From Lingula anatina (Eukaryota > Animalia > Brachiopoda), in assembly GCA_051362555.1 (NCBI GenBank), contig CM120641.1, positions 27,162,401 through 27,226,400 of the forward strand: a stretch of 64,000 nucleotides of DNA. The letters are read 5' to 3'. A model generated the notes under the pieces. It worked only from the letters and a program-made list of their open reading frames with translations, was not told the DNA's origin and ran no database searches. The number at the start of each line of letters is the position of its first letter. The first letter of the stretch is position 1. Of the stretch, positions 23,230 to 64,000 are shown piece by piece. The position numbers and the translations under genes are program-made.

Positions 23230-24256
23230 ATGGTTCGACATCTACGCAACGCAGCTTACTATTGGATTCTTGCTCTCAGAGAAAATGGCCAGAAACAGAC
23301 AGCAATTGCCAGGTAATTCAACATTTAACAGGAACCGTTTGTAAAGTCCACCAAAGAAATGCTGCAACAGGGGCACCTACTCCAATACCTCGACCAGGGT
23401 GTCCCCGTATCACACTAAGAAGACAGGACCGCCATCTCCTTAGAGGACGCCGTGCTGGTCGTACAAAGACAACCAGTGTCCTCAGAAAGAGAGAGGCAGA
23501 ATGTTATTTAAACGCCAGTTTCAAGGTACCTCGTGAACAAGAGATTACTGCATGCCAGTTATTTTGCACTAAGGCCAGTAGGGAAACCACAGTTAACAAC
23601 AGGTCATATACAGCGACGTCTGCAATGGGCTGGGGACCACGTGCGTTTGTAGCCAAAACAATGGAATCGCGTCGTTTTCAGTGATGAGGCCAGATATGAA
23701 TTTTTTGGGGTTGATGGTCGAATCCGTGTTCACCGACGTGTACGAGGGACATAAAACGATGATTGTGTGCTGTCTAGGGTGCAAGCAGGGGATGGTAACG
23801 TCTCTGTTTAGGGAGCATTTCATGTCGGTGCCCAGAGCCAGTTGGTTTCTCTAGGAGGCAACCTCATCCAGGATTCCTACAGAGGCATTCTACAGCAAAC
23901 AATGCTTCGATAGGTAAGAGTCATCTTCAGGAACAAATTTGTGTACCAAGACGACTGCGCAACCCCACATCGAGCCCGCAGAATCACTGTTTTTCTTCAA
24001 AACCAATGGGTTCAACAACTGCCCTGGTCTGCAAACTCTCCAAATTTGAACCCAATTGAAAAACTTTGGGCAAAAGTAACTCACAGAATTAATAGCTATG
24101 GTCATCATCCGGTAAAAAGTGATGAATTGCGACAGGCAAATATCACTGCGTGGAATGATATCCCCATCCAAACTCTAAAAAAACGTGTCACAGGATATGC
24201 CATGTAGGATGAGGGCGCTGCAAGCGGCTGCTGGAGGTCATACCCGCAATTACTGA
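23230..24256 (+). mobile_element. Decayed Tc1/mariner transposase
   Basis: Frameshifted fragments carry Tc1 motifs: RPGCPRIT..RQDR.L.R (HTH linker), VVFSDEA (first D) and YQDDCATPHRAR...WSANSPNLNPIEKLW (second D and E). TIRs were not confidently located. Confidence 0.85.
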
Positions 24257-25185: not shown

Positions 25186-25352
25186 TTGGGGCCCAAAAGA
25201 GATTCAGCCAAGGACACGTTTGGGGAACATGTTAGAACACGTCATGATGGACATTTACAGGTGTAGGACCAGAACAGAGCCTATGGTAAACAGTTTAGAA
25301 CCAAGGGACCGAACTTGATTTGAGGACCAGAAGAGAGGCTTTACAAACGCTG
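25186..25352. repeat. Right arm of the 167-bp long-range inverted repeat
   Basis: Reverse complement of 17614-17780. Ends 14 nt before the predicted exon start at 25367. Confidence 0.92.
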
Positions 25353-25366
25353 CATTTTCCCTTCAG

Positions 25367-25858
25367 ATCGGGCTAATTTCGCGCGACAGGCTGAACGCAA
25401 CTGTGGCCGAAGGCATCTGCCGTGCTAAAGGTTTAGAAGAATTTGACAGCTTGCCTTTTGTGGGGGCTTGGCGCAAACATGGGCCGAAGATGTGCGCTGA
25501 GGTAAGTCCGAATGCAACAATCCCATCACTGTCAGCCGTCGTCGTATACAAAGTCGTCTTACTGAAAAAGATACGCGGTTATCGTGAAGGTGTCCAAATG
25601 TTTGCTTCATTCCAACGCGAGATGGCCGAGGAGTTGCAGACCAGAAACGCGAGTTTCACCTATAACGGCAACGAATACCGGGCCACCGTGTTGGATGCAG
25701 ACATGCCACAGTGTCCAATGAACACTGCCAACCGTAAGCCGCCAACAGCCATGCCCGCCGGCGCAAGTGGGCGTCTGCAGGGTTCCTCACTGGAGTTTAC
25801 AATCTTGTGGGGGGCCTTTGCTTGTCAGATTTTAATAATGGTAAATGCGAAGTGTTGA
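25367..25858 (+). CDS. Probable terminal exon of the SMB-like gene, ending in a GPI-signal-like hydrophobic tail
   Basis: Acceptor TTTTCCCTTCAG, phase 0, open 163 codons, GC-richer than the flanks. The C-terminus ...AGASGRLQGSSLEFTILWGAFACQILIMVNAKC* has small residues, a spacer and a hydrophobic end. Confidence 0.65.
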   Translation: MGLISRDRLNATVAEGICRAKGLEEFDSLPFVGAWRKHGPKMCAEVSPNATIPSLSAVVVYKVVLLKKIRGYREGVQMFASFQREMAEELQTRNASFTYNGNEYRATVLDADMPQCPMNTANRKPPTAMPAGASGRLQGSSLEFTILWGAFACQILIMVNAKC

Positions 25859-36457: not shown

Positions 36458-36748
36458 TCAATATCTTGTCCATCCCCACGTTCCTGGGTCACCACCTTTG
36501 GAGTAAGGATCTTCGTATCCGTAGGGTGGACGACCCGGGCCGTTGGCGTACGGATCCATGTAGTCATAAGCTCGATTGCGGCTCCTCATGCTGTATGTAT
36601 CCAATGGGATCTTTTCATCTTTCAACTTCTGCTTGATCAACCAACTGGCGATGAGGTACAAGATGGCCGAAATAGCGCCTATTGCCATGCCAACCCAGCC
36701 CAAGATGTAAGACCAGCCGTAGCTGCGGACTGTATTTGTAAACAAATC
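36458..36748 (-). CDS. Claudin/PMP22-family gene, exon 5 (terminal)
   Basis: Acceptor CCCTTTCAG, phase 0. DLFTNTVRSYGWSYILGWVG carries the family YGWS..LGW motif and TM4, followed by a Tyr/Pro-rich cytoplasmic tail to the stop. Confidence 0.9.
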   Translation of the reverse strand, partial: DLFTNTVRSYGWSYILGWVGMAIGAISAILYLIASWLIKQKLKDEKIPLDTYSMRSRNRAYDYMDPYANGPGRPPYGYEDPYSKGGDPGTWGWTRY

Positions 36749-37572
36749 CTGAAAGGGAAGGATGAGAGACAGCTGTGATATAAGACGTCATTTTTACCTC
36801 TTTTGAATCCCTTTCATGGGATTCCTATTACATAATGATGAGAATACCAATAACGAAATAAACTGTAAGACGTCATTTGTAACTCTTTTGTACCCTTTTA
36901 ATAGGATTCCCATTTTTCATTAGTTTATGATAAGAATGACCATAATGAAATGTTGTAGCCACACCATTTCCTTGGTAAAAATTGTTTTATTATAGTATTA
37001 AGACCTGCGAGAGCATGTCACCGACCAGTGCTAGATCTTTCAGATACAGGATGGTTGCATGCATGCACAAAGGTCGTTTGTCATTTTGTGAATTTTCATG
37101 TTACCATAAACTACATTAAAACTATTTTGGATATTTTGCAATGACATAAGCATCGAAATAAACACTGGTGAAAATGTAAAGGCAATTACGTCCAAGAAAA
37201 TTATAGTTCAGTTGTAAATCTTATTAAAATGACTTGAGTGTTATCAGCCAGATGTATCGCGTTTGTATTAACATATTCAGGTTTTTACGAGACGGGGCCA
37301 TAAACAAATTTGACACACAGTAGGAACCAAAACTAGACCGGGATATGAGACAGGCCACCGTTATCAGCCTTTTCGATTATCTTTACACTTTCTCAGTTAT
37401 GGAATGATACATAGTCTTAGATGCGGTCTACCCACATCTAGAAGTTCCTGTGTAATTATTTTGTATGCAACGTGACATAGATACCGTGGCGGTTTTCATG
37501 CATCGGTCCTTGTCCAAAATGTGATTTTTATCATTAAGGTCGTACATACATGCAACGAAAATTATATTTCCC

Positions 37573-37639
<67 letters not shown>
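37573..37639. repeat. (GT)n(GA)n compound microsatellite
   Basis: Directly visible. Confidence 0.9.
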
Positions 37640-37885
37640 TTTGAAACTACGAAAAAAATTGACTGAATCGCTCTTTCATACATAGAGGTATATCAAAATT
37701 AAATTATTGGTTAAACTCCAACAATTGTGCCTCTATATGAGCAAAAACAACGATGAATCATTAGATCCCAGTCAAAATAGAATATCTTATTGTTCAAGAA
37801 GTCCCGTTAATTGTCTACCGACACGAAAAACAAGGAGCAATGGAATACCATCATGCGTCTGATAAGTGTCACAAATCGTACTTAC

Positions 37886-37986
37886 CGAATGCCAATTCAG
37901 CGGGAAGGTGTTGTCTTCGCGGACCTTGTTCCTCTCGATGTATTCGGCACCATGGAAGAAAGCCATGCCAGCCGCGGTAAAGAAAG
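37886..37986 (-). CDS. Claudin/PMP22-family gene, exon 4
   Basis: Acceptor ATCGCAG and donor TCG|GTAAGT. Reads (A)FFTAAGMAFFHGAEYIERNKVREDNTFPLNWHS. Confidence 0.87.
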
Positions 37987-39013
37987 CTGCGATAAGAATG
38001 AAACACTTATATGTGTGCATGTTGTCAAATTTTTAAAGAGAATATAGTGGGTTGATATTTTTTAACAGACTGGATATTGATTTCATGTTTAATATTTGAA
38101 TCCCTCAGCTTTATTTAAAACTAGTGAAATATAAATTATTAAAGTTAGGTAAGTTGATTAAAAGCAAACAGACGGTTCGTCTCTAATGCAGAGTCCCAGA
38201 AAAGGAACTACATTCAAAATAGGTCACATCCTGTTTTTAATAGGAATTTCGTGATAACAAAACCAGTCATCTTTGAATATCTCTTGATGCTGAAAATTAA
38301 AATTTTGTAAACTGTTGGCATCAAATTTTTTTCCTGCAATTAACACGTGTCCCCCAACTAAAAAACACAGAAGAGGTCTTTGTAAATCATTCTCAAATAT
38401 CGTCAGTGTAATTCCATGACAGTGATAAATTAATAACATAATGGCGGCGAGAAAGGCTTAATTGAGTTTGGAAGATTAATTTCATAAAAGCTCTCGAATA
38501 AGTTACATTATCAAACGGATGCAGGAACAGTAATTTATCACGTATTGCTCAACATCGGAGAACGGAGCGCAGTTCCAGATTTAAAAACGCGCAAGATGAT
38601 GAGGTTAAGTTAGTATAAATAGCGTCTCCAGTTCATGCTATTTTTTTTCTTTTCTTTTCTTTTTTTCTTTTTTTGTTTTTTTTTTTTTTTGGGGGGGGGG
38701 GGGGTTCACATTGTATACGATTTAAAATTGGTATATTATGTAAACATCACACCTGACAACCCCACCAAACCACTTCAGTTCAACGTAAACGAAAAGTAAA
38801 TCAAAGAAAACAAAATATCAGGTAAAGAATTTTACCCATAAATTACCCCAAACCCATTAACTACGTCTTAGGAAATCTGGCAACTCATGGCAGTCTTAGT
38901 AGGGGCCATTAGGATCACAAAGGGTGCACCAGCTGCGAGAATGTAAGATGTAAGTGCAAGACACGAAAGAGAAAACAATGGCAATATATTTAGTGCCATG
39001 TCGCATATCGTAC

Positions 39014-39151
39014 CTCCGATGAACACGACAACTGCGGCATATCTGGACGTCGTTGCTTTAGCTTTCCAGCAGCCGAAGGCTCCAACCACGCAGCCAATCA
39101 GGAGGAAGAAGAGGGCCGTGATAAGGAAACCCACATGACATCTCATTAAAT
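39014..39151 (-). CDS. Claudin/PMP22-family gene, exon 3
   Basis: Acceptor TTTCAG and donor G|GTACGA. Reads (H)LMRCHVGFLITALFFLLIGCVVGAFGCWKAKATTSRYAAVVVFIG (TM2 and the start of TM3). Confidence 0.87.
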
Positions 39152-40096
39152 CTGAAACAAAGCATAGAGTACATATAATATAATACAGGTGACTGGTCTG
39201 ATTCTCCGCGAAAGGAGTTATCTGTTAAGATCACAATCTAAAATCGTGTTCTACATACCTATTGTTTTATATGGAAATAGCCACTGCACGTCCAGGCATG
39301 ACAGCAACGATACTTACAGGTGGCTATTTTGTCCTCGAAACAACCTCATCAAAATGATTCAGACAAAAATAAACGTGAGACAGAAATGTGCATATATTTA
39401 TTTCATGAGTCTTGTTTTTTTAAAAAATACTTTATTATTTAAAATAATTTAATCCATCTTTCGATGTTGCTGAACCAAACACTCACTGCATGAGACAACG
39501 AAACCAGGACGTTCTTTTCAAGTGACAAGGCAAATGCACAGACGGGTGACTAGCAAACATCGCTAAGCTCTAGTTTCCATATAAAGATTAAGCCCCACAT
39601 TCACAATGTTGACAAGACATATACTCCTCCCTTTTCCTATCTAGGGCCACAGGTACACCACACGTATGTCGTTATATTACCGATGCAGGTAACAATAGCG
39701 CTGTACACACAAACAAGAGGGTCACGTCCCGACAGTGAAAAAAGAGATCGTGTCAGCTTCGGTTATCTCATTGTTGGCAGTTGAAAATATGCGGAATTTT
39801 GTTTATATCAATGAAAAAGGCCACCTCAGGAAACGAAACACCTGTAGCTAAGAATATTAAACGATAGCGACCTTTGTTGTAATTGTTAAGACCTATGATT
39901 AATTTTGCTTCATGTCATAGCTATAGAAACTTTCTGGTGTTCCTGACTTTCACTTCTTGTGTCTTCTTTGAAGTACGGAAATTTAAGCATAAAAATAAAA
40001 AGTTCTGTTGGTAAATGACCAAGGATCCCAAGAGGTTAAGATGAACAAGGCTGACATGTTAAAAATATATAATACAAGACACATGTATATACTTAC

Positions 40097-48657: not shown

Positions 48658-50087
48658 ATGTCACTGTTTTATGCCTGTTTGCTGTACTTTGTGCTCCTTC
48701 ATGCTGAACCCACCTTGGCTCAGACAACTGTAACTGTAAAGCAAGGGGATATCAATGGGAAAATATCAATTCTTGGACCCAACGTGACCTCGTACCTTGG
48801 GATACCCTACGCTGAACCGCCTTCGGGTAATCTACGGTTCAAGAAACCAGTACCTAAAGCTGCGTGGAGTTCTCCACTGAATGCCACTGAGTATGGACCA
48901 ATATGCCTGCAAAGGAACGCCACGTTTCCTAGCTCTGAGGACTGTCTGACACTTAATGTTCATGTACCTCAGAATAATAACACCGGCCCTAAAGCGGTCA
49001 TGGTTTGGGTTCATGGCGGAGGGTTTGTCGTGGGCAGTGCCAGGGTACTGGATCCTGTAGTTCTAGCCCTTGAAGACGTTATTGTAGTCAGTATCAACTA
49101 TCGATTAGGTATATTCGGTTTTCTCGCTGTTGGGGATGTCGCAAAAGGTAATTACGGACTTTGGGACCAACATCTCGCTTTTCGATGGATAAAAGAAAAC
49201 ATTGCCGCCTTTGAAGGAGACCCTAACAGAATCACGATATTCGGAGAATCTGCAGGCAGTATGAGCGTGTCTTTCCATGCTATGTCTCCAATGAGTGACG
49301 AACTGTTCCATCGTGTCATAAGTCAAAGTGGGGTGGGTTCCCAAGATTTTGTCCTTCTGCAGAGTTCCAAAAACATCGCCTTACTGAGTGAAACTTCAAA
49401 ATGTAACAGCACCGATTCAGTGTCTCTGGTATCGTGCCTGAAAAATAAAAGCGAACAAGATCTTCTTGAGGCCTCTAATATTCTTGCTGAGACGTTATTT
49501 TGGATACCTAATATGGACAACGAGCTCATAACCGGATACGTAGAAAGTTCGATAAACTTTCTGCCAGACCAATACGGTAAACTCGACTTCTTGATGGGAA
49601 GCAACAGCCTTGATGGTAACTTTGACACCCAGGCACTCGCCAAGGCAGAGGACGGTTTCATTGAATCAGATTTCAGCAAAGCTGTGGACAACTTATTTCA
49701 CGCATTTGTTAGACTAGACAGAGAGGTGATAAAGGCTGCTCTGTTACAAGAGTATACAGCAGGTGTGTTGAATCCAGACAACAGAACAAGAGTGAAACAA
49801 TTAATAGAAATGGAAGGGGACCTTTTTTTCACGGTCCCAACCCATTTGAACGCCCTCAAACATGACACAGCCAATGGTACTGGTTCCACATTTGTATATT
49901 ACTTCTCCATAAACACGTGCTTCAAAGTTTTACCCACTGCATCTTGGCTGGATGGAGCTGGGCATGTCGACGAGTTAATCTACATTAGTGGTATGATTAG
50001 TAATGTGTGCAACGGTAGCGCCACGCCTGCTGACCTAGCCCTTCAGACTGCTATGATAACTTACTGGACCAACTTTGCTAAATCTGG
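48658..50087 (+). CDS. Type-B carboxylesterase/cholinesterase-family variable exon V1
   Basis: ATG plus signal peptide, YLGIPYAEPP, SEDCLTLNV, WVHGGGF, FGESAG, GSNSLDG, GAGHVDEL. Ends YWTNFAKSG at GG|GTAAGT; the ORF-track TAA lies inside the donor site. Confidence 0.93.
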
Positions 50088-51610
50088 GTAAGTCCTTGAT
50101 TCAAAATCGGTGTATTTGCTCAGTAGTTGCGCCCTATTAGTACGTAATTTAAGTGGCAGTGACACTGTGTGAACTGTAAACAGTGTAAAACCCTACTCCC
50201 AGATATATGGCCATTTTTCTGAAAACTGATTTTTCCCTTGCGTAGCTACGGTTATTCGTTACTCTTGGCAGTAGAGGCAGTAGAAGGTTGTGCGGGCGGG
50301 CTGCCGCGTTTTATGTCGTTTTTTTTTACTTATGTGTTTCATAGTGAGAGCTGAATTTTTATATATTACTTCAGCACACCAAATTAAAAAAAAAACCTCC
50401 ACTGGGTAAGAAAATAGGAAATCAAGGATTTAGAAATAAGAGAATAATAGGAATTTCAAAGCTTAAGAGAGCAAAATATTTTAATTAAAATAATTTAATA
50501 ACAAACATAGCTTCTCTACAAACCAAAACTACTTTTTACGCGCCGCTGTTTTTCTATTTCTATCTCTACTTCATGCAGTCTCCAGCGGCCCTCTCTCGTT
50601 TTCATTACACGCAGTTTTTTAAGTATCATAAGAGTATGTCAATCAACTCAGTTCCTCTACAAAACACTAACCGCTCCTTGTTCACGCATGACTGTCAATT
50701 ACTTATATTACATCTTTTTTTATTCCAATAGCAAGCTTAAAATTTAGATAGTAAGTTCAGGCCGCAGCTTACACCCAAGTATTTAGAAGCTATAGCACGT
50801 GTAAGCAGATATGGACAAAAATATCCGCAACCAAACGAAATGATATATTATTCATTGAAGTTTTAACTTTAAAAAGCTCATAAAAAAGGGGAGAGGCAAC
50901 AGCTCTGTATGACTGTTAAAAAATGATAAATGAAAAAGTGTAAGGACTTTTTAAATTGTTGGGATTACTTTTCATTGCGAAGACAGAGTGGAGTGACATA
51001 TCGTTTATCTATTTTCTGGTTAAATACTGTTTCAGTTTATTTAAGTAAAATTGATTTATCTAAATTGTTTATATCCAAAAATATTGGTAACATACACAAG
51101 TTTCACGTAGCATATTTATTTCACTGTCATATCTACCTAATCGGGAAAGTCAACGTTATGCTACAGTTTACACTATACCTGGTGATCTTGGCCCAAAGAA
51201 ATGTAACAAAGTTATCTGTGGTCAGCTGCAGGCGTAACTTTATACAGATTTCTAATTGACAGGTCAAAATGGATGCCTGAAATCATCTTAGTTAAAGAGG
51301 CTTATCTTACAAAGATAACATTGTTTTACATGTGCGTCACCTCATTAAAGGCACTTCTACGATGGTCACATTTACTCGCTGATTTATCTTATCGGGCACT
51401 ACAAGTAATAGTATTACTTAATTCAAACAAGGTGTACGGTCACTCTGTTAGCTGCACTTCTTAATGTCAAAGGCTGAATTGGCCCACAAGTGAATGTTAA
51501 ACAGATACATAAGGGTGTGTCTGGGCAGTGTCCATACAAAACGGCCATAGGGTTACATTGTATTTCATTTACCTGGAGGCGACGTCGAAATGATGTGCCT
51601 TCCTGTCGAA

Positions 51611-53034
51611 ATGAAATTGTTCAGTGCCTGTGCACTGTTCTTTGTGTTCCTTCATGCTGAACCCACCTTGGCTCAGACAACTATAACTGTACAGCAAGGA
51701 GATATCAATGGGAAAATATCAATTCTTGGATCGGACGTGATGTCGTACCTTGGGATACCCTACGCCGAGCCGCCTTTGGGTGATCTGCGTTTCAAGAAAC
51801 CAGTACCTAAAGCTGCGTGGAGTTCTCCACTGAATGCCACTGAGTATGGACCGATATGCCTGCAAATGAATGCCCGATTTCCCAGTTCCGAGGATTGTCT
51901 CACACTTAATGTCCATGTTCCACAGAATAACACCAATACCCCTAAAGCAGTCATGGTTTGGGTTCATGGCGGAGGATTCGTCGTAGGAAGTGCTAGGGAA
52001 TTGGATCCTGTAGGTCTAGCCATGGCAGACGTCATCACAGTTAGTATCAACTACCGTTTGGGCATGTTTGGCTTTCTTACTATTGCAGACGACGTAAAAG
52101 GTAATTTCGGACTTTGGGACCAACACCTCGCTTTCAGATGGATAAAAGATAACATTGCTGCCTTCGGAGGGGACCCCAACAGAATCACGATATTCGGAGA
52201 ATCTGCAGGTGGTATGAGCGTGTCTTTCCATGCTATGTCTCCAATGAGTGACGGACTGTTCCATCGTGTCATAAGCCAAAGCGGGATTGGCACTCAATAT
52301 TTTGTCCTTCGACCGAGTCCCACAATTATCACTTCTCTGAGCAAAACTTCAAATTGTAACACCACCGATTCGGCGGCTTTGCTATCTTGTCTCAAAGGTA
52401 AGAGTGCCCAAGATCTTCTTGCTGCCTCTAATACCCTTGGACAGTTGCTTATTTGGATGCCGAACATGGACAATGAGTTTGTAACTGGAAACGTTGAAAG
52501 CTCATCAAATCTTCTACCAGAACAATATGGAAATCTTGATTTTTTGATGGGAAGTAATAGTCGTGACGGTTCTATCGAAATAGCGGTGCCTTCCGAAGCT
52601 GAAAATGGTTATACAGAGTCAACTTTCCGCAAATATGTCGACCGTATGTTATTTGGGAGATTGGACAAAGATATTATTGAAACGGCGTTGATACAAGAGT
52701 ACACAGAAGGTGTGTATAACCAAGATAACAGAACACGTGTACAGCAATTAATAGAAATCGCATCGGACCTCTTTTTCACAGTCCCTACCCAGTTGAACGC
52801 CCTCAAACATGACAGAACCAACGGTACTGGTTCCACGTTCGCATATTTTCTCTCTATAAATACATGCCGCAAACTACTGCCCACGGTGTCTTGGCTGGAT
52901 GGAGCTGGACATGCCGACGATCTAATCTACATTAATGGTCTGGTCAGTGTTTTGTGCAACGGTAGCGCCACACCTGCTGATCTAGTCTTACAGACAACCA
53001 TGATTACCTATTGGACGAACTTTGCTAAATCTGG
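51611..53034 (+). CDS. Carboxylesterase variable exon V2
   Basis: ATG (MKLFSACALFF...) plus signal peptide, intact HGGG, GESAG, GSNSRDG and GAGHADDL. Phase-2 donor GG|GTAAGT. Confidence 0.93.
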
Positions 53035-53478
53035 GTAAGTGATTTATACTTGAATTAAATACGTGACATACTAATCATTAAACACGATGGTTGGAAATCT
53101 GGTTCTGTTAAGACGTGCTTATAGGTTGCGTTGATTTTCATGCAAAAACGCAGACTGCATTAGTTATATGTATATTTCTTGAATTCGCATTTTTCATATT
53201 CAGCAAGCTTTAAGAACTATTAGAATTATTAGAACATATACACCGGTGCACTTTGAGAGGTCCTAACTGTAATTATGACACGGGGGTTTTATTCGCTTTC
53301 ACAAACTGCCAGCGAGTTGCTTCAAGTTGGTAACTAGGTGAGAGTTCATTGGTAGGTTGGGTCGAGCTTGGATGATCTGCTTGGGTGACCCTCGCTCACC
53401 TACTGGGTGATATAGCTAATATGCTAAGTGCATTGGTACAAACTGCATCGCTGTGGACAGGGCCCCAGTTTCACCATG

Positions 53479-53660
53479 CAAGACCGTAGCCAGCAAATTC
53501 AAAAGGGGGTTCTTTTTCTGAAAAAGTGGACCTTTTACAATGAAACTTATGTTTACCTAGATAAAATTTTATCCAAAATGGACCTTTTCCTGACAAAAGG
53601 GGCGGTTCTTTCGAACCTCCCGACCCCCCCCCCCCCCCCCCCCCCCCGGCTACGGGCCTG
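53479..53660. mobile_element. MITE inserted in the V2-V3 spacer only
   Basis: Termini CAAGACCGTAGCC / GGCTACGGGCCTG with flanks CCATG/CAATG. Absent at the homologous site (~57250) in the V3-V4 spacer. Confidence 0.7.
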
Positions 53661-53983
53661 CAATGTCTCTGTTTTTCATTTTTGTCAAAACAAAAGGCAT
53701 GCTAGGCAGTATATAGATTAATGGGAACTTCCAATTAATAATTAGTATACATGTAGAACACGTTTTAATTCATTATTGTTGGTTATAAATAAAAAGCGCA
53801 ATGGCAGAATTGACAAAAAGGGTAAATTTTACGACTGTTTTCAAGCATGAAACTTCATGCTGATTCAAAACAAAAAATCATTATTTTTAAAAACCAAACA
53901 TCAAATTGAATAAACAAGCCCTTTCCGTACATACGGTAGGTATTCGACTGCCACGCTGTCCGTCTGCAGATATGGTATTTAAA

Positions 53984-54238
53984 TAGGGGAGACAGGGGTT
54001 AGTTGGACCCCGGGGTAAGTACCCCCCCCCCCCCCCCCCCATCAATTTATGACAAAGTAACTATGGGGCAAAGGAATTGATCACAGCTTTTTTTGTGAAG
54101 TGACCGTATCCAACAGTGCTAAGAAAGCGTCGGCAGTGAGTCCAAATGAAATAATTTAGCATCTTGAAGTAACTTTATTAAAGAGACTTAATGGGGGACC
54201 AACTTACCCCGGGGTACAACTAGCCCCGGACTCCCCTA
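53984..54238. mobile_element. TA-flanked MITE present in both duplicated spacers
   Basis: TA-GGGGAGACAGGGGTTAGTTG ... CAACTAGCCCCGGACTCCCC-TA inverted termini. Paralogous copy at 57876-58130. Confidence 0.7.
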
Positions 54239-54782
54239 CCGCAGTTTAAGGAGGTGGAAACCATGTGTGCACAATTTAATCCGATCTTAAATTCCGTCGA
54301 ATTGGCCAACGCGTCTAGGTGAATAAGGTTTGTTTACCCACTGTGTATACACCCTGTGTACACTGCCACACATTCATCAAACATTCGGTGTGATCATTTG
54401 TGCTGGTCAATTCTTTGCTGTGGTTATTAGTATGGTCAGTTGGAGAGGGACACGTTTATTTAGAACTTTCCGACCAAAACTCCACAGAATAACCTCTTTA
54501 ACCACAGTCAATTATATCTACGTACACCATACACAGTAGTAAAACGAAGCATTCAAATATACATTTATAACTGTTATATGATGAAACAGTGTGGTAACTG
54601 TAGTCAACTAACCCGGTGGTTTATATTGAAGTTGTCAAAGCACTTTTAACTACTTTTTAACGCAAAGTCCCTGACTAAAAAAAAAATAAAACTTTCAACT
54701 GAACCACCAGTTGGACCATAGTTCGTGCGGGTCTTACATGGTATGTCCCTTAGGTAAACTATCCACAAGACTAATGATATCA

Positions 54783-54950
54783 CAGGGGCGGATTTAGGCC
54801 GTCTTCTGGGTCTTCCGGAAGACGGTCAAATTTTAAAGTTTACATTGACGGGTATCTAATATTTTCTGTCGGAAGACGGTCAAAAATGGAGGATGGATTA
54901 ACAAAAATAATTTGGAAGACTGTCAGAAAATATCTCTGGATCCGCCCCTG
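54783..54950. mobile_element. MITE with CAGGGGCGGAT termini upstream of V3
   Basis: Perfect 11-bp TIR with flanks ATATCA/ATATCG. The empty site is at ~58675 upstream of V4. Confidence 0.82.
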
Positions 54951-55205
54951 ATATCGGACCCGCAGGGTCAAGTACAATACCGGGTATTTTGCTTTATTTA
55001 TTAACGTGATCAAACAATGGCCAGCTTTACCCGCGAAGAAGCTGGATTGTGTAATACTGACTTGTCATTCACTACGGTTCTCTCGTACCTTCATGTAAAC
55101 AGAGGTGTGTTGACACTGCACTCTACCAGGCACGACGGGTTTTCTATACATTTAGATAAAGAACAGCAGTGGAGTGCAGTCGCACAACCCTGGCTTTTGT
55201 ACAAA

Positions 55206-56629
55206 ATGATACCGTTCAGTGCATGTGTGTTGTTCTGTGTAATCCTCCATGCTGACACCTCCTTTGCTCAGAGAAGAGTCACTGTACAGCAAGGAGATAT
55301 CAATGGGAAAATATCAATTCTTGGATCGGACGTGATCTCCTATCTTGGGATACCCTACGCTGAACCTCCTTTGGGTGATCTACGATTCAAGAGACCAGTA
55401 CCTAAGGCTGCTTGGAGTTCTCCACTGAATGCCACTGAGTATGGACCGATATGCCTGCAAATGAATGCCCGATTTCCCAGTTCCGAGGATTGTCTCACAC
55501 TTAATGTTCATGTACCGCAGAATAATAACACCGCCCCTAAAGCAGTCATGGTTTGGGTTCCTGGCGGAGGGTTTGTCTCGGGCAGCGCCAGAGCAATGGA
55601 TCCTGTAGGTCTAGCCATGGCAGACGTCATCACAGTTAGTATCAACTACCGTTTGGGCATGTTTGGCTTTCTTACTATTGCGGACGATGTAAAAGGTAAT
55701 TTCGGACTTTGGGACCAACACCTCGCTTTCAGATGGATAAAAGACAACATTGCTGCCTTTGGAGGGGACCCCAATAGAATCACGATATTCGGAGGATCTG
55801 CAGGCAGTATGAGCGTGTCGTTCCACGCTATGTCTCCAATGAGTAACGGACTGTTCCATCGTGTCATAAGCCAAAGTGGGATTGGCACTCAATATTCTGT
55901 CCTTCGACCTAATCCCACAATTGTCACTTCTGTGAGCAAAACTTCAAATTGTAACACCACCGATTCGGCGGCTTTGCTATCTTGTCTTAAAGGTAAAAGT
56001 GCACAAGATCTTCTTGCTGCCTCTAATACCCTTGGACAGTTGCTTATTTGGAGGCCGTATGTGGATAACGAATTTATAACTGGAAACGTTGAAAGCTCAT
56101 CAAATCTTCTACCAGAACAATATGGAAACCTTGATTATTTGATGGGAAGTAATAGTCGTGATGGTACTGTCGGAATCTTTGTGCCTTCCGAAGCCGAAAA
56201 TGGTTATACAGAGTCAACTTTCCGCAAACATGTCGACCGTATGTTAACTGGGAGATTGGACAAAGATATCATTGAAACGGCGTTGATACAAGAGTACACT
56301 GCAGATGTCTTTAATCCAGATAACAGAACGCGCGTACAGCAAAAAATAGAAATCTCTACAGACCTCTTTTTCACAGTCCCTACCGAGTTGAACGCCATCA
56401 AACATGACAGAACCAATGGTACTGGTTCCACGTTCGTATATTTTCTCTCCATAAACACGTGCAACAAAATTCTGCCCACGGTGTCTTGGCTGGATGGAGC
56501 TGGACATGTCGACGAACTAATCTACATCAATGGTCTGGTCAGTGTTTTGTGCAACGGTAGCGCCACACCTGCTGACCTAGCCCTACAGACTGCCATGATT
56601 ACCTATTGGACCAACTTTGCTAAATCTGG
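55206..56629 (+). CDS. Carboxylesterase variable exon V3 (atypical PGGG / GGSAG motifs)
   Basis: ATG (MIPFSACVLFC...) plus signal peptide, open frame, Ser/Asp/His retained. Phase-2 donor GG|GTAAGT. Confidence 0.92.
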
Positions 56630-56668
56630 GTAAGTGATAAATACTTGTTCTAAATACATGGCATACGA

Positions 56669-56826
56669 CAGGGGCGGATTTTGGCCGTGTTCTGGGAGAC
56701 GACCAGATTTTCAAGTTTACATTGACGGGTATGTAATTTTTTCTGACGAAATACGGTCAAAATGGTGGATGGATCAACAAAATTAATTTGGAAGACTGTC
56801 AGAAAATATCTCTGGATCCAGCCCTG
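56669..56826. mobile_element. Same MITE family inserted 40 bp downstream of the V3 donor
   Basis: Highly similar to 54783-54950, with flanks TACGA/TACTA. The empty site is at ~53070 after V2. Confidence 0.8.
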
Positions 56827-57469
56827 TACTAATAATTAAACACTATAGGTTTGTAATCTGCTTCTATTAAGACGTGCTTATAGGTTGAGTTGATTGTCAT
56901 GCAAATGCAGACTGCATGAATAAGGCGGCGACCTACCGGTATTGGTAATATGTGCTTCATTAAATGGAACGCATTTTATTATTATTATTGTTATTATTAT
57001 TATTATCAATAATGATGTTCTGATATCTCTTACTGTCAACGAGTTCGCTTCATGAAGCTTACTAGGTGAGAGTTCATTGTTAGGTCGGGTCGAGATTGGA
57101 TTATCCGCTTGGGTGACTCTCTCTCACCTACTGGGTAATATAAGGTGAATCTCTCACCTATTAGTTAATATGGCCTATATGGAAAGTTGTCAGTCTCTCA
57201 AGGTGCAGCGGTTCAAACTGCATCGCCGTGAAAAAGGCCCCAGTTTCACCAAATCTCTGTTTTTCATTTTTGTCAAAATAAAAGGCATGCTAGGCAGTAT
57301 ATAGATTAATGGGAACTTTCAATTAATATTTAGTATACATGTAGAACATGTTTTATTTCATTATTGTTGGTTATAAATAAAAAGCGCAATGGCAGACTTG
57401 ACAAAAAGGTAAACTTCACGACTGTTTTCACGCATTAAACTTCATGCTGAATCAAAACTAAATATCATT

Positions 57470-57771
57470 GGCCGCATTCACATCGAGTTGAGCCATGGCT
57501 CCACAAAGCCACGACCTAATTATGGCGGAAGTACATGAAAGGAAAACCGCCTAATCTTTCAATAGTCTCTCCGCCTCTCACCCGCCTCCCCATGTGTTGT
57601 CCCAATGGAGCCGAGATTTACTGGCTGTACCCCCGCAGGGACGACGCATGGGGAGGCGAGCGAGAGGCGGATAGACTATTAAAAGATTAGGCGGTTTTCC
57701 TTTCATGTACGTCCGCCATATTTAGGTCGTGGCTTTGTAGAGCCATGGTTCAACTCGATGTGAATGCGGCC
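57470..57771. mobile_element. Fold-back (palindromic) MITE, PIF/Harbinger-like
   Basis: 134-bp inverted arms (57470-57603 / 57638-57771) around a 34-bp loop. Termini GGCCGCATTCACA, ATT 3-bp target duplication, empty site at ~53880. Confidence 0.85.
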
Positions 57772-58882
57772 ATTCTCTTTAAAAACCAAACATCAAATCG
57801 AATAAATAATCCCTTTCCGTACATACAGTAGGTATTCGACTGCCATGCTGTCCGTCTGCAGATATAGTATTTAAATAGGGGAGACCGGGGCTAGTTGGAC
57901 CCCGGGGTAAGTTGCCCCCCCCCCCCCCACCCCCGTCAATTTATGACAAAGTAACTATAGGGTAAAAGAATTGATCACATCATTTTGTAAAGTGACCGTA
58001 TCCAGTAGTGCTAAGAAAGCGTCGGCAGTGAGTCCAAATGAAATAATTTAGCATCTTAAAGTAACTTTATTAAAGAGACTTGACAGGGGACCAACTAACC
58101 CCGGGATACAACTAGCCCCGGTCTCCCTTACCGCAGTTTAAGGAGGTGGAAACATGTGTGCACAATTTAATCCGATTTTAAATTCCGTCGAATTGGCCAA
58201 CGCGTCTAGTTGAATAAGGTGTGTTTACCCACAACCGTTTGTATACACCCTGTGTACACTGCCACATATTCATCAAACATACGGTGTGATCATTTGTGCT
58301 GGTCCATTCTTTGCTGTGGTTATTAATATGGTCAGTTGGAGAGGGACACGTTTATTTAAAACTTTCCGACCAAAACTCCACAGAATAACCTTTTTAACCA
58401 CAATCAGTTATATCTACGTACACCATACACAACTTATTTTAACGAAACATTCAAATATACATTTATAACTGTTCTTTGATGAAACAGTGTGTTAACTGTA
58501 GTCAACTTACCCGGTGGTTTATATTGAAGTTGACAAAGCACTTTCAACTACTTTTAACACAAAGTTCCTGACTGAAAAAAAAATAAAACTTTCAACTGAA
58601 CCACCAGTTGGACCATAGTTTGTGCGGTTCTTACATGGTATGTCCCTTAGGTAAACTATCCACAAAACTAATGATATCGGATCCCCAAGGTCAAGTACAA
58701 TACCAGTTTTTTTGCTTTATTTATTGACGTGAATCAAACAATGGCCAGCTTTACCCGCGAAGAAGCTGGATTGTGCAATACTGACTTGTCATTCACTACG
58801 GTTCTCTCGTACCTTCATGTAAACAGAGAGGTGTGTTGACACTGCACTCTACCAGGCGCGACGTGTTTTCTTTTTATTTGGA

Positions 58883-58888
58883 TATAAA
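58883..58888 (+). promoter_or_regulatory. Candidate TATA box upstream of V4
   Basis: TATAAA ~50 nt upstream of the V4 ATG with no good AG acceptor in between. The homologous V3 site reads GATAAA. Confidence 0.3.
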
Positions 58889-58933
58889 GAACAGCAGTGG
58901 CGTGCAGTCGCACAACCCTGACTTTTGTACAAA

Positions 58934-60357
58934 ATGATACCGTTCAGTGCATGTGTGTTGTTCTGTGTAATCCTCCATGCTGACACCTCCTTTGCTCAGA
59001 GAAGAGTCACTGTACAGCAAGGAGATATCAATGGGAAAACATCAATTCTTGGATTGGACGTGATCTCCTATCTTGGGATACCCTACGCTGAACCTCCTCT
59101 GGGTGATCTACGATTCAAGAGACCAGTACCTAAAGCTGCTTGGAGTTCCCCACTGAATGCCACTGAGTATGGACCGATATGCCTGCAAATGAATGCCCGA
59201 TTTCCCAGTTCCGAAGATTGTCTGACACTTAATGTTCATGTACCGCAGAATAATAACACCGCCCCTAAAGCAGTCATGGTTTGGGTTCATGGCGGAGGGT
59301 TTGTCTTGGGAAGTGGCAGAGAAGTGGACCCTATAGGTCTAGCCCTGGCAGACGTCATCACAGTCAGTATCAACTACCGTTTGGGCATGTTTGGCTTTCT
59401 TACTATTGGGGACGATGTAAAAGGCAATTTTGGACTTTGGGACCAACACCTCGCTTTCAGATGGATAAAAGAAAACATTGATGCCTTCGGAGGGGACCCC
59501 AACAGAATCACGATATTCGGAGAATCTGCAGGCGGTATGAGCGTGTCTTTCCATGCTATGTCTCCAATGAGTAACGGACTGTTCCATCGTGTTATAAGCC
59601 AAAGCGGGGTCGGTAGTCAACAATTAACGTTACAAAAAAGTACGAAAAACGTCGTCTCATTGAGTGAAAATTCAAAATGTAATACAACCGATTCAGTGTC
59701 TTTGTTAGTTTGTCTTAAAGGTAAGAGTGGACAAGATCTTCTTGCTATCTCTAATATGCTTATAGAGTTGTTTATGTGGGTTCCGAATATGGACAACGAG
59801 CTTATTACTGGCAACGTGGAAAGTTCGGCAAATCTTTTACCAGATCAATATGGGAATCTTGACTATTTGATGGGAAGCAATAGTCTTGACGGGAACGCAC
59901 TGATCAGGGTACCGGCCGAGGCCGAGAATGGTTTTACAGAACAAGCTTTCCGTCAACGTGTCGACCAAATGTTAACTGGGAGATTGGACAAAGATATCGT
60001 TCAAACGGCGTTGATACAAGAGTACACTGCAGATGTCTTTTATCCAGATAACAAAACACGTGTAAAACAGTTCGTAGAAATGGGAGGTGATCTAACATTA
60101 ACAATTCCTACCCATATGAACGCCCTCAAACATGACGAAACCAATGGTACTGGATCCACGTTCGTATATTTTCTCTCCATAAACACTTGTCACAAACTAC
60201 TGCCCACGGTGTCTTGGCTGGATGGAGCTGGACATGCCGACGACCTAATCTACGTTAATGGTCTAGTTAGTGTTTTGTGCAACGGTAGCGCCACACCTGC
60301 TGATTTTGCCCTACAGAATGCTATGATAACTTATTGGACCAACTTTGCTAAATCTGG
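58934..60357 (+). CDS. Carboxylesterase variable exon V4
   Basis: ATG (MIPFSACVLFC...) plus signal peptide, HGGG, GESAG, GSNSLDG and GAGHADDL. Phase-2 donor GG|GTAAGT. Confidence 0.93.
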
Positions 60358-60647
60358 GTAAGTTACTCGGATAAGAATATAAGATTATTACTAGGGTACT
60401 AAAACAGCTGGCAAGGGACACCTTGTATGGCAAAAGTAACAAGGATATGTTAAAAGGTAAATTTCCTGCCTCCATTGATAGCTAATTACGTTTTTAAAAT
60501 GAATAAAAAAAATTCGAAACAATTGCAGTCAATCGTATAAAAACTACGGCGGGTTATCGCATTAATGCATTTTTTATACTAATCTATGGTTCGTTTACTC
60601 CGGTGATCTGTACGTCGTGATCACATTTTACTATCTGATATTTTCTG

Positions 60648-62769
60648 CAGGCTTGAAAGAATTCTTAATTTTGTCTCGTTTTGCTCGCTATGTTCTCATT
60701 TGGTGGCTGTGGCGGTGTGTGAGGGGGAGGGGGGTTGTGAGTCAGTAGCTACGAGCTAAGAGGAACGTGGCTGCTGTTAACTTTCCAATTTCCCCAGCTG
60801 ATCACTGTTCTTCTTTGAAATGGTGGACTAGTTACAAGACATATTGTATATTACATATTGTAGGAAGAATGTTGCGATATTTTATATCTTCTTACCAGTA
60901 TAACTCGCATGAGAGTTAGGAACAACTACTGGCATTAATGCATGATGAATCTGTTGTGACAGTACAAGATGATAACTATACATTTATAACACTGGCTGGG
61001 AACATAATAATATATGCTGATACAAATACGCGTGAAAATGACGAAAAATACTTTACATAACTTCTTTCACCATTATATTCCCGAATCAGAATGTGTCATA
61101 CAAATAAGCAGGGGACTTTGCATTATAACTGTTGAAAACTAATCAATTTTCTATTTTGCATACCGTGCGATAACATACCTTTAGCATCTACATTTGTTAT
61201 GATTTTGCAAATACTTTTACATTTGTTTATATAAATAAAGCACCCGCACTTTCTGTACAGATTTACATTTGCAGCACTTTTTTTGTTAAAATAACACTAT
61301 GTCATTCTTATAATTAGCTTCTGCTCTAAAAATGTAAGGTATAAAACAATAGACGCATTAACATATCCCCGTCCTAGGCTAAATATCATGATCTGTCATT
61401 TTTCTTAGCAACCAAATGTTGTTGTGTCTTATAATGATCTTATTTTATCAAACTTTATTTTATTTTATTTTATGAAATAGTTCCGATTAAGAAGTCAAAA
61501 ACAAACTACGGGTAAAAGAAGGTACCAGTACAATGAAGTAAATTAGCGCTTCTTCATTGTAAGGAGTTTATACCACCAAATATGTATGTGTAAACAGACC
61601 ACGCCCGACCCTTGTCACCTTCTGACCCCTGAATAATTATTAGCAGTCATTTTATAACGTTCAAAATCTTCGTGTGGGCTTACAGTGCCGAGTTCCCATT
61701 AATGACCCACACAGGTAACCTCCGTCCTAGATTTTCACCCTCTTTCGTCTTGCTACCTGTAACCCTAAACTATGTGAATGTTATGGTTGGCATAGTCTCT
61801 GTAACATTAGCCCTTGCTTTCTTATCACCGAGTATGATTTTTAAAAATAGATTGTACAGCAAGAAGGTTGGCAATGACGTGAACTTTTTATTGGAAGAAG
61901 GCCCGCCTCGTGCATACTATATAACAAAGGGCTGTTAACAATAGACTGTAAAAAGATCCACACAATGTGAGACAGGTGCGGTGAGACAACTGCACGTCTC
62001 CACGTGAGGCAAGTAAAATATATAGGACACAGGCTTGAAAGAATTCTTATTTCTTAATTTTGCCTCGTATTGCTCGTTATGTTCTCATTTGGTGGCTGTG
62101 GCGGTGAGGGGGGGGGGGGGGGGTAAGTGAGTCAGTAGCTACGAGAGAGGAACGTGCCTGCTGTAACTTTCCGATTTCCCCAGGTGATCACTATTCTTCT
62201 TTAAAATGGAGGACTAATTACAAGACATATTATATATTAAAAATTTTAGGAAAAAATGTTGCGATATTTAGATAATATCCAACAAAAACCTTTTATTTCT
62301 ACTTACCAGTATAACTTGCATGGGGAGTTAGGAACAACTACTGGCATTAATGCACTGACGAATCTGTTGTGATAGCACAAGAACTTGATTATAACTATAC
62401 ATTAATAATACTGGCTGGGAACATAATAATATATGCTGATACAAATACGCGTGAAAATGTTGATTGTATTTACGGTTAAAGTCCACCATTATATTCCCAA
62501 ACCAGAATGGATTTTTACAAATAAGCAAGGGATTTTGCCTTATAACTGTTGAAAAACTAATCCAATTTTCTATTATGCATACCGTGCAGTAATTGATAAC
62601 ATACCTTCAGCATCTACATGTACTTAATTTTTTATGATTTTGCAAATAGATGTTCTCTTTTACATTTGTGTATATAAATAAAGCACCGGCACTTTGTGTA
62701 CTGATTTAAATTTGCAGCACTTTTTCGTCATAATAATACTATGTTATTCTTTTCATTAGCTACTGCTCT
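60648..62769. repeat. Dispersed direct repeat of ~0.7 kb in the intron between V4 and the constant exon
   Basis: 60648-61327 aligns with 62030-62769 (CAGGCTTGAAAGAATTCTTA...TTAGCT(T/A)CTGCTCT) with indels. Confidence 0.85.
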
Positions 62770-63016
62770 CACTGTTCTTCTAAAATATATCTTAGCGTTT
62801 CGTCGGTGACAACCTCATATAACAAGAAGACTAAAATTGGCTGTATAAATATTCTGCTGTTGTAAAGTGTGACAAAATATTATATTCCTAAGGATGTTGT
62901 GGTGCATTTTCGTGTCTGATAAGATCTCTGTATGTACATTACCTTATATTTATGTTATATATGTTTATTTGACACTCTGAAAAAGTTACCCAGTTAATTT
63001 ATTTGACTTTTTCCAG

Positions 63017-64000
63017 GAACCCAAACCTGCCTGCCCCTGTTCTAACACAGTGGCCCAAGTACGACCATGTTCAGCGCGAATACCTCGACCTCAATGAGAA
63101 CATCACTGCCAAATCCAATCTCAAAGCACGTCGAGTTGCCTTCATGACCGACGTGCTTCAAAAGCTGGTGGAACTTCCATCGGAGGGAGTTTGTACAGAA
63201 ACGGGCGATGCCATGGATGACTTGGTTGTGAATACTTTTTACGGCAAAATCAGAGGGAAGCGTGAGGTCGTAAAAGAATGGTACTGGGAAATGTTTCTTG
63301 GCGTTCCCTATGCAGCTCCCCCCATAGGAGAACACCGATTTCTCCCACCAATACCTCCAAAAATGTGGAGCGGCATCCGAAATGCAACGGAATTAGGATA
63401 TTCCTGTCATGGAGGAGCGGTTTTTCCCTCACCCTCTCCTTTAACGTTCCACGAAGATTGTCTCACACTTAATATATATGTGCCTGCAGGAGTGCGAATG
63501 TGGAAAGACGAAAAACTTGCTGTAATGTTATTTATACACGGAGGTGCCTATGTGGTTGGATCAAGTTCAGAGTACGACGGAAGAGCACTTAGCTGGTACG
63601 GACGCGTCATTGTTGTCACCATAAATTATCGCCTCGGAATCTTCGGTTTCGCAAGCACTGGGGACCAGAATGCTCCCGGAAACGTTGGTCTGATGGATCA
63701 GAGTCTTGCAATGCGGTGGGTAAAACAAAACATAGCCTCCTTTGGTGGTGACCCCGAAAGAATAACTATATTTGGAGAATCGGCAGGTGCTGGAAGTGTC
63801 ATATACCAAATGCTTTCACCTATGAGTAAAGGGTTGTTCAAGCGAGCCATAGCAGAAAGCACATGGCTGGGAGCTTGGGACTTACATTTCATCGACCCAG
63901 CAAAAAAGAATAACATAGATTTGATACGCGAGTATGGCATTCATTTCAACTGCAGTTCTTCACCAGTAGACATGATAAGGTGCCTTCGTGATATCAATGC
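63017..64000 (+). CDS. Downstream (putative constant) exon: end of esterase domain 1 plus a second carboxylesterase domain, running off the window
   Basis: Acceptor TTTTTCCAG|G completes the GG|G Gly codon. Reads NPNLPAPVLTQWPKYDHVQREYLDL...KARRVAF, then a linker, then VVNTFYGKIRG...FLGVPYAAPP...EDCLTLNIYVP...FIHGGAY...INYRLGIFGF...FGGDPERITIFGESAGAGSV. No stop before 64000. Missed by the ORF track. Confidence 0.92.

Follow-up and report, generated by a model that had tools for sequence, protein, structure and literature searches.

A probable variable-first-exon locus encoding a multidomain carboxylesterase in the brachiopod Lingula anatina

A carboxylesterase gene of Lingula anatina, located in the 64,000-nucleotide stretch of DNA analysed here (the window), is probably organized as a variable-first-exon locus resembling those of UGT1 and the protocadherins, with at least two of its alternative first exons in use. 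The stronger version, in which all four are used, has in our judgment slightly less than an even chance. In the scheme we propose, the first coding exon of a single gene would have been copied in tandem to give four exons, V1 to V4 (Table 1); the exon at the V4 position is joined to the common exon at 63017, and V1-V3, each likely expressed from its own promoter, would be spliced past the downstream copies to the same exon. The locus would encode as many as four three-domain proteins, predicted to be anchored in the membrane and alike except in their outermost esterase domain. The whole Ser-Asp-His triad of that domain lies in the variable exon. The constant exon finishes the domain with the last two strands and a helix, and the chain goes on with a second domain, which has triad motifs, a third, which is apparently dead, then a Thr/Pro stalk and a helix predicted to cross the membrane.

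Table 1. Positions of the variable exons, the first constant exon, and the repeated non-coding DNA in the window.
Feature	Position	Strand	Description
V1	48658-50087	+	variable exon, 1430 nt, farthest diverged of the four; open frame, donor
V2	51611-53034	+	variable exon, 1424 nt; open frame, donor, intact triad
V3	55206-56629	+	variable exon, 1424 nt; H119P and E197G near the catalytic Ser
V4	58934-60357	+	variable exon, 1424 nt; proximal, joined to the constant exon in RNA
First constant exon	63017-64000 (past window end)	+	tail of domain 1, linker, first half of esterase domain 2
Spacers 5' of V3 and V4	53069-58678	+	tandem duplicate, 85-94% identical in pieces (self-blastn)
Two 0.7-kb non-coding copies	60648-62769	+	81% identical, within the V4-C intron; no tail exon

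The initial annotation described four tandem exons of about 1.43 kb, each with an ATG, a signal peptide, and a catalytic triad, and this description stands (1.42-1.43 kb) with the qualification that V3 keeps the triad but has altered flanking motifs. Each exon starts with ATG and a hydrophobic N terminus (signal peptides were judged by eye), has no internal stop, and has a length that leaves 2 when divided by 3. All four 3' ends read AAATCTGG/GTAAGT, a phase-2 donor, and the acceptor at 63017, TTTTTCCAG/G, completes the Gly codon, after which NPNLP...WPKY is encoded. Such a tandem array of alike, near-equal-length, same-phase 5' exons is characteristic of variable-first-exon clusters, and it is compact, the four cassettes lying within 12 kb and 2.7 kb from the constant exon. 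Downstream there is a single constant set with no private exons: tblastn of the tails of domains 1, 2, and 3 against the window found 63018 only (E = 5e-36, 3e-5, and 0.36, respectively), all remaining matches having E of at least 0.4; acceptor-like sites in the four spacers opened no further tail-like frame, which upholds the earlier view that the spacers contain no tail exon; and the RefSeq constant part is common to two isoforms at 1265 of 1265 residues. The identical stop codon and phase-2 donor, which had also been put forward for a shared locus, are as observed but are not independent evidence, because the same motif terminates 58 of 242 retrieved proteins, including 2 from Lingula. This points to an ancient intron, conserved in position, with a donor that is read as a stop codon; the copies would simply have inherited it.

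The exon at 63017 does encode the C-terminal part missing from the variable exons, in a phase that fits all four donors as had been proposed, but it also enters a second COesterase domain. After about 55 residues of tail it continues in frame into that domain (residues 68-325, E = 1e-95, Pfam), and the frame is still open at the window end. The exon agrees with RefSeq isoforms X1 and X2 at 320 of 327 residues, and these RefSeq proteins, from which the constant part beyond the window was taken, indicate a constant part of 1265 aa that adds a second and a third esterase domain and is predicted to end in a membrane anchor. Domain 2 carries triad motifs, and domain 3, as read by eye in P0001, is without the Ser and His motifs and looks catalytically dead and neuroligin-like; toward the C terminus lie the Thr/Pro stalk and the predicted transmembrane helix. 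The two extra domains and the anchor had been overlooked in the initial annotation, as had the V3 motif changes and the apparent exchange between cassettes described below.

The Pfam COesterase profile is matched by V1-V4 from position 2 or 3 to 471 of 515 with 390-402 bits, against a cut-off of 27, and the best PDB sequence match is bile-salt-activated lipase (E = 2e-64); V1, for instance, comprises a signal peptide and an esterase core of about 455 aa. The Ser/Asp/His triad, GESAG, and HGGG are intact in V1, V2, and V4. V3 keeps Ser, Asp, and His with the private changes HGGG to PGGG and GESAG to GGSAG, both also present in RefSeq isoform X2, and may be a weakened or binding-only version. 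A predicted model of V3 plus the tail (pLDDT 91, pTM 0.93; TM-score 0.89 to butyrylcholinesterase 6emi) places the tail in strands at 475-479 and 484-487 and a helix at 491-506, a block with pLDDT of 93-98. In this prediction, V3 and the tail together make up a whole esterase domain. The likeness to type-B carboxylesterases/cholinesterases (PF00135) includes the fold, GxSxG, an Asp aligned to lipase position 320, and the His motif, whereas the Lingula chain differs in having three deeply diverged domains, the third without Ser and His motifs, and a predicted transmembrane helix. The V copies diverge most at residues 226-400, a region that we infer to contain parts of the lid and of the pocket lining, so the array would likely allow one scaffold to serve several substrates or ligands.

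One alternative is that V1-V3 are expressed as independent genes of one exon each, with translation continuing into the donor (GGG TAA) and yielding secreted proteins of 475-477 aa without the tail. RefSeq models V1 (P0123) and another protein, P0124, in this way, AATAAA or ATTAAA hexamers lie behind each donor, and a few sense-strand reads of RNA run X6 map within the V4 intron at 60524-60735. We regard this alternative as very improbable, since the product would be short of about 45 Pfam profile positions, including two strands and the last helix, and since GTAAGT is perfect at all four donors despite the introns diverging directly after it. A search for literature on the activity of a tail-less cholinesterase returned nothing. 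Moreover, a limpet model that ends at the motif has a full-length cluster partner of 606 aa in a sister species, one such partner among the six truncated models checked by cluster, which means that a model that stops at the NFAKxG donor can be an annotation miss. The idea that truncated models of other species are orphan cassettes was found unsupported with 8 proteins by blastp, 7 of which end at the motif, and 6 by cluster look-up.

In RefSeq, V4+C and V3+C are present as isoforms X1 (V4 allele) and X2 (V3) of LOC106179609, on one constant part; V3 is identical to the N terminus of isoform X2 (P0121) at 474 of 474 residues, and V4 to that of isoform X1 at 467 of 474. The record differs from our reading in that it bears the name "uncharacterized", V1 is treated as a gene of its own (P0123, a stand-alone model of 477 aa, 468/476 identical), protein searches gave no match for V2, and the layout is undescribed. 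The allelic amino-acid difference of V1 from RefSeq, 8/476, is no higher than the 7/327 of the constant exon.

Among the junctions to 63017 that the initial annotation proposed to look for in RNA-seq, 60357>63017 (GT..AG) was seen with 21 reads in four of four runs (X7, 4; X8, 4; X9, 3; X6, 10), with no reads in the first 100-nt bin of the V4-C intron (60418-60523), and reads assignable to V1 or V2 numbered none. Seven Lingula RNA runs were aligned (X1, X2, X4, X6, X7, X8, and X9; X3 and X5 were left out), all of low depth and unrecorded tissue, with 6-30% of each run used. Because V1-V3 lay outside the stretch aligned in the junction analysis, all V-type reads were placed on V4, and the junctions thus represent a V-type donor placed on V4 (60357); the V identity of the X7-X9 reads is unassignable because they differ by about 5-6% from the window even in the constant exon. 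In an alignment of 18 kb, the joints listed (15 of 115) were all poly-C/G and uninformative on V>C joints. Runs X1, X2, X4, and X7 had zero depth over V1 at 49005-50206 (its 3' two-thirds) and V3 at 55616-56216 and a depth of at most 0.03 over V2 at 52611-53211, where the depth of V4 itself in these runs was only 0-2.5. A search for transcript-derived fragments joining V1 or V2 to the tail found none.

In run X6, V1 letters were found in 0/14 and 0/13 reads and the V2 letter at 60244 in 0/12. V3-type letters at 60191-60268 (V4 coordinates) occurred in 7-8 of 12-16 reads and were absent at 60116 (0/18) and 60137 (0/14), where an intact V3 transcript would give about 6 reads (P about 0.003, assuming uniform coverage). 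A mosaic haplotype with a V4 5' part and a V3 3' part fits better than an intact V3, and the V3 letters, which vanish at these two positions, were rejected as proof of V3 expression. The mosaic may be allelic to V4, occupying its position, and may also have misled the RefSeq X2 model. At 60307, the V3-type letter was present in 4 of 14 reads, and the cleanest read had 6 further differences, which, going by the counts, would be the exact load of a V3-type 3' end reaching the donor. As to use of more than one variable exon on the constant exon, the 21 reads show the V4-position junction, and V3 may be joined as well, going by RefSeq isoform X2 and this putative V3-type 3' end, which may be a mosaic allele; V1 and V2 have no such reads. 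Four X6 reads running from the donor into a foreign exon were considered as a private exon and rejected, because its motif is matched nowhere in the window and belongs to P0238, another Lingula esterase.

These RNA ends, which are just V4-type and mosaic V4/V3, would agree with a locus in which V4 alone is used and V1-V3 are silent orphan partial duplicates that persist mainly as gene-conversion donors into V4. Mosaics in three haplotypes, namely, the 5' end of V4 in the window (its first 25 codons equal those of V3 in DNA), the RefSeq V4 allele, which departs from that 5' end at 4 residues, and the X6 mosaic, also speak for it, and cassettes do appear to exchange segments. Such exchange, through unequal crossover or gene conversion, would make the alleles more varied. 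So do the active-site changes of V3 and its weakest constraint. We nevertheless hold this explanation to be unlikely, since V1 and V2 have long private branches under strong purifying selection, which is unexpected of a silent exon, two assemblies have V1 and V3 with intact frames, RefSeq isoform X2 exists, and silence of V1-V3 cannot be concluded from seven low-depth runs without recorded tissue. Pairwise dN/dS was 0.20-0.35 in all six V pairs (dS 0.24-0.70), and private pN/pS, 0.16-0.49 across V1-V4, was below neutral in all four, with V3 marginal (V1, 0.26, p = 1e-15; V2, 0.16, p = 1.5e-8; V3, 0.42, p = 0.033). In simulations of neutral substitution, a frame stayed stop-free in 0/2000 cases for V1, and with frequencies of 0.026, 0.23, and 0.027 for V2, V3, and V4, respectively. 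Judged by these measures, the variable exons are retained by purifying selection, weakest in V3. The larger claim of one locus with a variable/constant layout is supported by the V4-position junctions, the RefSeq pair, selection, and the lack of private tails in the window; for V1 and V2, splicing to the constant exon is a prediction.

The variable-first-exon reading must also be weighed against mutually exclusive internal exons behind one non-coding first exon and promoter, as in Dscam1, or joining in trans. An acceptor-like TTTCCAG lies 5 nt upstream of the V1 start codon, and the V upstream regions yielded no common promoter motif above chance (k-mers at or below chance). A simple pyrimidine rule, however, detected no acceptor-like site within 600 nt upstream of V2 or V4, nor at the homologous place of V3, so that the conserved acceptor per variable exon and common upstream exon of Dscam1-type arrays were not found. 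In addition, V3 and V4 were, on sequence grounds, copied together with over 1 kb of the DNA preceding them, because their upstream spacers form a tandem duplicate. We give Dscam1-like or trans joining as small a chance as the single-exon genes.

If used as proposed, the brachiopod esterase would be an independent origin of a variable-first-exon enzyme cluster, in a family that hydrolyzes xenobiotics and lipids. Literature searches, covering listings and the opening parts of abstracts, turned up neither an esterase described with this layout nor an account of the locus itself. The UGT1, GCNT2, and UGT2A organizations are termed vertebrate-specific in the main text of PMC1885805, from which the word "esterase" is absent. 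As described there, these share with the Lingula array tandem large first exons of near-equal length and the same frame, a signal sequence in each, common constant exons, and a role as enzymes of small-molecule metabolism. The Lingula locus differs in its brachiopod host, in a variable exon that covers about 91% of the catalytic domain with the full triad, in separate promoters that are so far proposed, and in a constant part that adds two esterase domains; exchange between its cassettes appears to occur, whereas little gene conversion was found in the vertebrate enzyme clusters (PMC1885805). The same text states gene conversion among protocadherin variable exons. Clustered protocadherins and chelicerate sDscam, the latter an invertebrate case of alternative promoters plus splicing with promoter use determined by 5' RACE, are alike in having tandem 5' cassettes, a variable outermost ectodomain, and a constant membrane-anchored body (PMC4835542). 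Those are, however, adhesion receptors, and a protocadherin cluster contains over a dozen cassettes; the Lingula array has four, of an enzyme fold.

The swapped unit, almost an entire catalytic domain, is unusual, and isoform sets of multi-domain esterases from amphioxus, starfish, skates, and Styela (23 proteins) included none with a swapped N-terminal domain. More tentatively, and with odds that we put at about one in three, all cassettes would be used via separate promoters and recombine in the population, forming a cell-surface repertoire in which the outermost esterase domain is swapped wholly, from active enzymes to a possibly binding-only V3, and the esterase/neuroligin-like stalk is constant, with the same at a second unit on the scaffold. 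In that case the cholinesterase fold would have been turned to detoxification in the manner of UGT1 or to a recognition code like that of the protocadherins, and unrecognized cassettes would account for some of the "truncated" esterase models in other invertebrates. Because the locus is small, distal-donor skipping of intact cassettes and the interplay of conversion and splicing are testable with ordinary long reads.

In a quick tree with long branches, used just for the clade of variable exons, the nine V rows form one clade (SH-aLRT 100), and multi-domain esterase models of other animals are mostly grouped by species and not orthologous domain for domain. The second unit lies on the same 547-kb scaffold, where P0124 (470 aa), itself terminating at the donor, shares 95% identity with domain 1 of P0122, a protein of 1736 aa with an adjacent accession; by sequence comparison, the P0124/P0122 unit appears to repeat the pattern of this locus.

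V1 to V4, the four variable-exon cassettes that each code for most of carboxylesterase domain 1, were found where the initial annotation had placed them, with open frames and a common phase-2 donor. All four terminate with AAATCTGG, directly followed by the donor GTAAGT, and the Gly codon split there is completed by the acceptor at 63017, after which NPNLP...WPKY is read. The Pfam COesterase match of each V exon reaches position 471 of 515, and the alignment of V4 ends at residue 473 of solved bile-salt lipase chains of 522–533 aa; therefore, about 50 residues are absent from the V exons. The proposal of a single tail exon in the window was borne out, as tblastn with three esterase tails matched 63018 alone, and none of the acceptor-like sites scanned in the spacers between cassettes led into a tail-like frame. 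The same exon, however, also codes for the start of a second esterase domain, which had been missed; it enters that domain without an intron and continues past the window end. V3 joined to the initial 55 residues of the constant part was modeled with AlphaFold2 from a 45-row alignment (pLDDT 91, pTM 0.93); two strands and the final helix of the model come from the tail, and the TM-score against whole cholinesterase, carboxylesterase, and neuroligin domains is 0.85–0.89. The join is thus predicted to complete the fold, which speaks to the fold and not to the occurrence of splicing. The shared end point is weaker evidence than was initially held, because the motif at the V donor is also the C-terminal end of 58 of 242 fetched proteins. 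Most likely, an old intron at this motif, with its donor reading as a stop, explains the proteins ending there, and copies of the first exon would inherit the end point from it. One limpet model ending at the motif has a full-length cluster partner, indicating that such models can be simple misses.

Cassette exons and other features of the window
Feature	Position	Strand	Remarks
V1	48658-50087		open frame, phase-2 donor
V2	51611-53034		open frame, phase-2 donor
V3	55206-56629		open frame, phase-2 donor
V4	58934-60357		open frame, phase-2 donor
Cys-rich exon, 417 codons	14804-16054	+	best Atlas match DUF8401 cluster 0.92, low recognition score, lead only
Possible later exon of Cys-rich gene	25319-25855	+	
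Claudin/PMP22-like gene exons	36461-39224	-	PF13903 E 2e-5, under curated cut-off
Decayed transposase	23226-24204	+	DDE_3 remnant, E 5e-5
GC-skewed tandem repeat array	7000-7700		similar short units when translated

The closest database proteins are RefSeq models of Lingula anatina itself. The N-terminus of LOC106179609 isoform X1 is an allele of V4 (467/474) and that of X2 is V3 (474/474), while after the junction both are identical across 1265 residues, a constant part that the window's 63017 exon matches at 320/327. Two isoforms are already in RefSeq, without comment, and neither such a layout for carboxylesterases nor an account of the locus was found in the open-access literature searched. 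By eye, the constant part comprises the domain 1 tail, then domain 2, in which motifs for Ser, Glu, and His are present, and domain 3, where Gly and Phe stand in place of Ser and His; a Thr/Pro stretch follows, and a hydrophobic helix lies close to the C-terminus. The product is predicted to be anchored in the membrane and to have three domains, of which the outermost esterase domain would be exchangeable. A quick tree built from 43 domain rows groups all nine V-type rows in a single clade (SH-aLRT 100) and sets them well apart from domains 2 and 3, which suggests that the three-domain protein is old and the cassette array younger. V1 appears in RefSeq as P0123, a separate 477-aa protein ending at the donor TAA, and a V2 protein was absent from the matches of the database protein searches. 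That the cassettes make stand-alone proteins lacking the tail seems very unlikely. Beyond the window, protein models from the same 547 kb RefSeq scaffold as LOC106179609 reveal a second unit, a three-domain paralog with a donor-terminated V-like neighbor: P0122 (1736 aa, 1175/1265 identity in the constant part) and P0124 (470 aa, accession adjacent to P0122), which ends at the donor and is 95% identical to the first domain of P0122.

Most likely, a first exon and its promoter would have been copied repeatedly within the gene. V3 and V4 were duplicated along with upstream DNA, no k-mers common to the regions upstream of V1, V2, and V3 exceeded chance, and no conserved acceptor was found ahead of the V ATGs; a promoter for each cassette is therefore a default assumption. 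A TATA-like TATAAAG lies ~50 nt before the V4 ATG, by eye. A transcript from any cassette would use its own strong donor and join the next suitable acceptor, which would be 63017 because downstream cassettes mostly lack acceptors. We consider it probable that at least two cassettes are used in this manner, and use of all four has a little less than an even chance. It is very unlikely that the exons are mutually exclusive behind one promoter or are joined to the constant part in trans. The locus probably belongs, as first proposed, among UGT1/protocadherin/sDscam-type clusters, whose defining features include several variable-to-constant junctions and a promoter for each variable exon; it would work like UGT1 and GCNT2 clusters (PMC1885805) and protocadherin or sDscam clusters (PMC4835542, PMC1885805).

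All six V pairs gave dN/dS of 0.20–0.35 (dS 0.24–0.70). For changes unique to one V exon, private pN/pS was 0.26 in V1 (p=1e-15), 0.16 in V2 (p=1.5e-8), 0.42 in V3 (p=0.033), and 0.49 in V4 (p=0.006). Chance stop-free survival, simulated with substitutions only, was 0/2000 for V1, 0.026 for V2, 0.23 for V3, and 0.027 for V4. A selection signal would persist in a recently silenced exon. V1 and V3 are intact in the RefSeq assembly too, and the allelic difference of V1 (8/476) is not above that of the constant exon (7/327). Divergence concentrates in residues 226–400, with some 25-codon windows down to 54–57% nucleotide identity; V3 and V4 are 96–100% identical across the first 125 codons. Private changes of V3 include H119P and E197G, which lie beside the glycines that form the oxyanion hole in this family and beside the catalytic Ser.

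Four RNA runs were mapped to 60100–63260, a region that leaves V1–V3 outside, so that all V-type reads land on V4. The one joint obtained was 60357 to 63017 (GT..AG), with 4 (X7), 4 (X8), 3 (X9), and 10 (X6) reads. Of the proposed junctions to 63017, a V-type join aligned to V4 is seen in four runs; letters of V1 and V2 are absent in X6 (0/14, 0/13, 0/12). X6 is near the window sequence (64/98 reads at least 99% alike; stranded, +). About half of its reads (7–8 of 12–16) carry V3 letters at 60191, 60237, 60244, 60254, 60256, 60265, and 60268, as do 4/14 at 60307; none does at 60116 (0/18) or 60137 (0/14). An intact V3 transcript, which would give ~6 V3 letters at the last two sites (P about 0.003 under even coverage), was rejected as the source. 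A haplotype that is V4 to ~60190 and V3 thereafter reproduces the observed floor of 9 further differences per read, along with most substitution tallies, so X6 shows a mosaic cassette at the V4 3' end (60100–60357). The mosaic may be a converted V4 allele or an extra cassette arising via unequal crossover, and such an allele could, by mis-mapping, lie behind RefSeq X2. X6 looks heterozygous at 60160 too (9/18) and, within the constant exon, at 63034 (8/13). The window's V4 opens with 25 codons identical to V3, a stretch in which the RefSeq allele has 4 residue differences; this start and the mosaic suggest ongoing conversion or unequal crossover. In an 18 kb mapping, the distinctive 3' parts of V1–V3 had no depth in four of four runs (X1, X2, X4, and X7), with V4 itself reaching only 0–2.5. 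That V4 alone is used and the other cassettes serve as silent conversion donors is unlikely, although less so than the other alternatives. Four X6 reads departing from the donor are another gene's.

In X7–X9 the V-to-63017 junction is conserved and the constant exon is ~5–6% diverged; over 63017–63260, ~11/200 constant-exon bases differ from the window despite the same species label. These reads have two residue changes in common with P0122, and their source would be a diverged lineage or that paralog. A few sense-strand X6 reads (depth 1–3) lie in the intron after V4 at 60524–60735, downstream of AATAAA at 60502; they may be pre-mRNA or repeat-derived, or mark an end within the intron.

Elsewhere in the window, the Cys-rich exon had no Pfam match, and somatomedin-B-named clusters rank below DUF8401 for it. 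In Branchiostoma floridae, isoforms X1–X9 of the two-domain esterase LOC118418956 (P0099, P0243–P0247, P0249–P0251) share their first 880 residues exactly, and their C-terminal 270 residues come in nine mix-and-match versions; this would reflect either duplicated 3' exons in an array of mirror-image layout or gene models mixed among duplicates.
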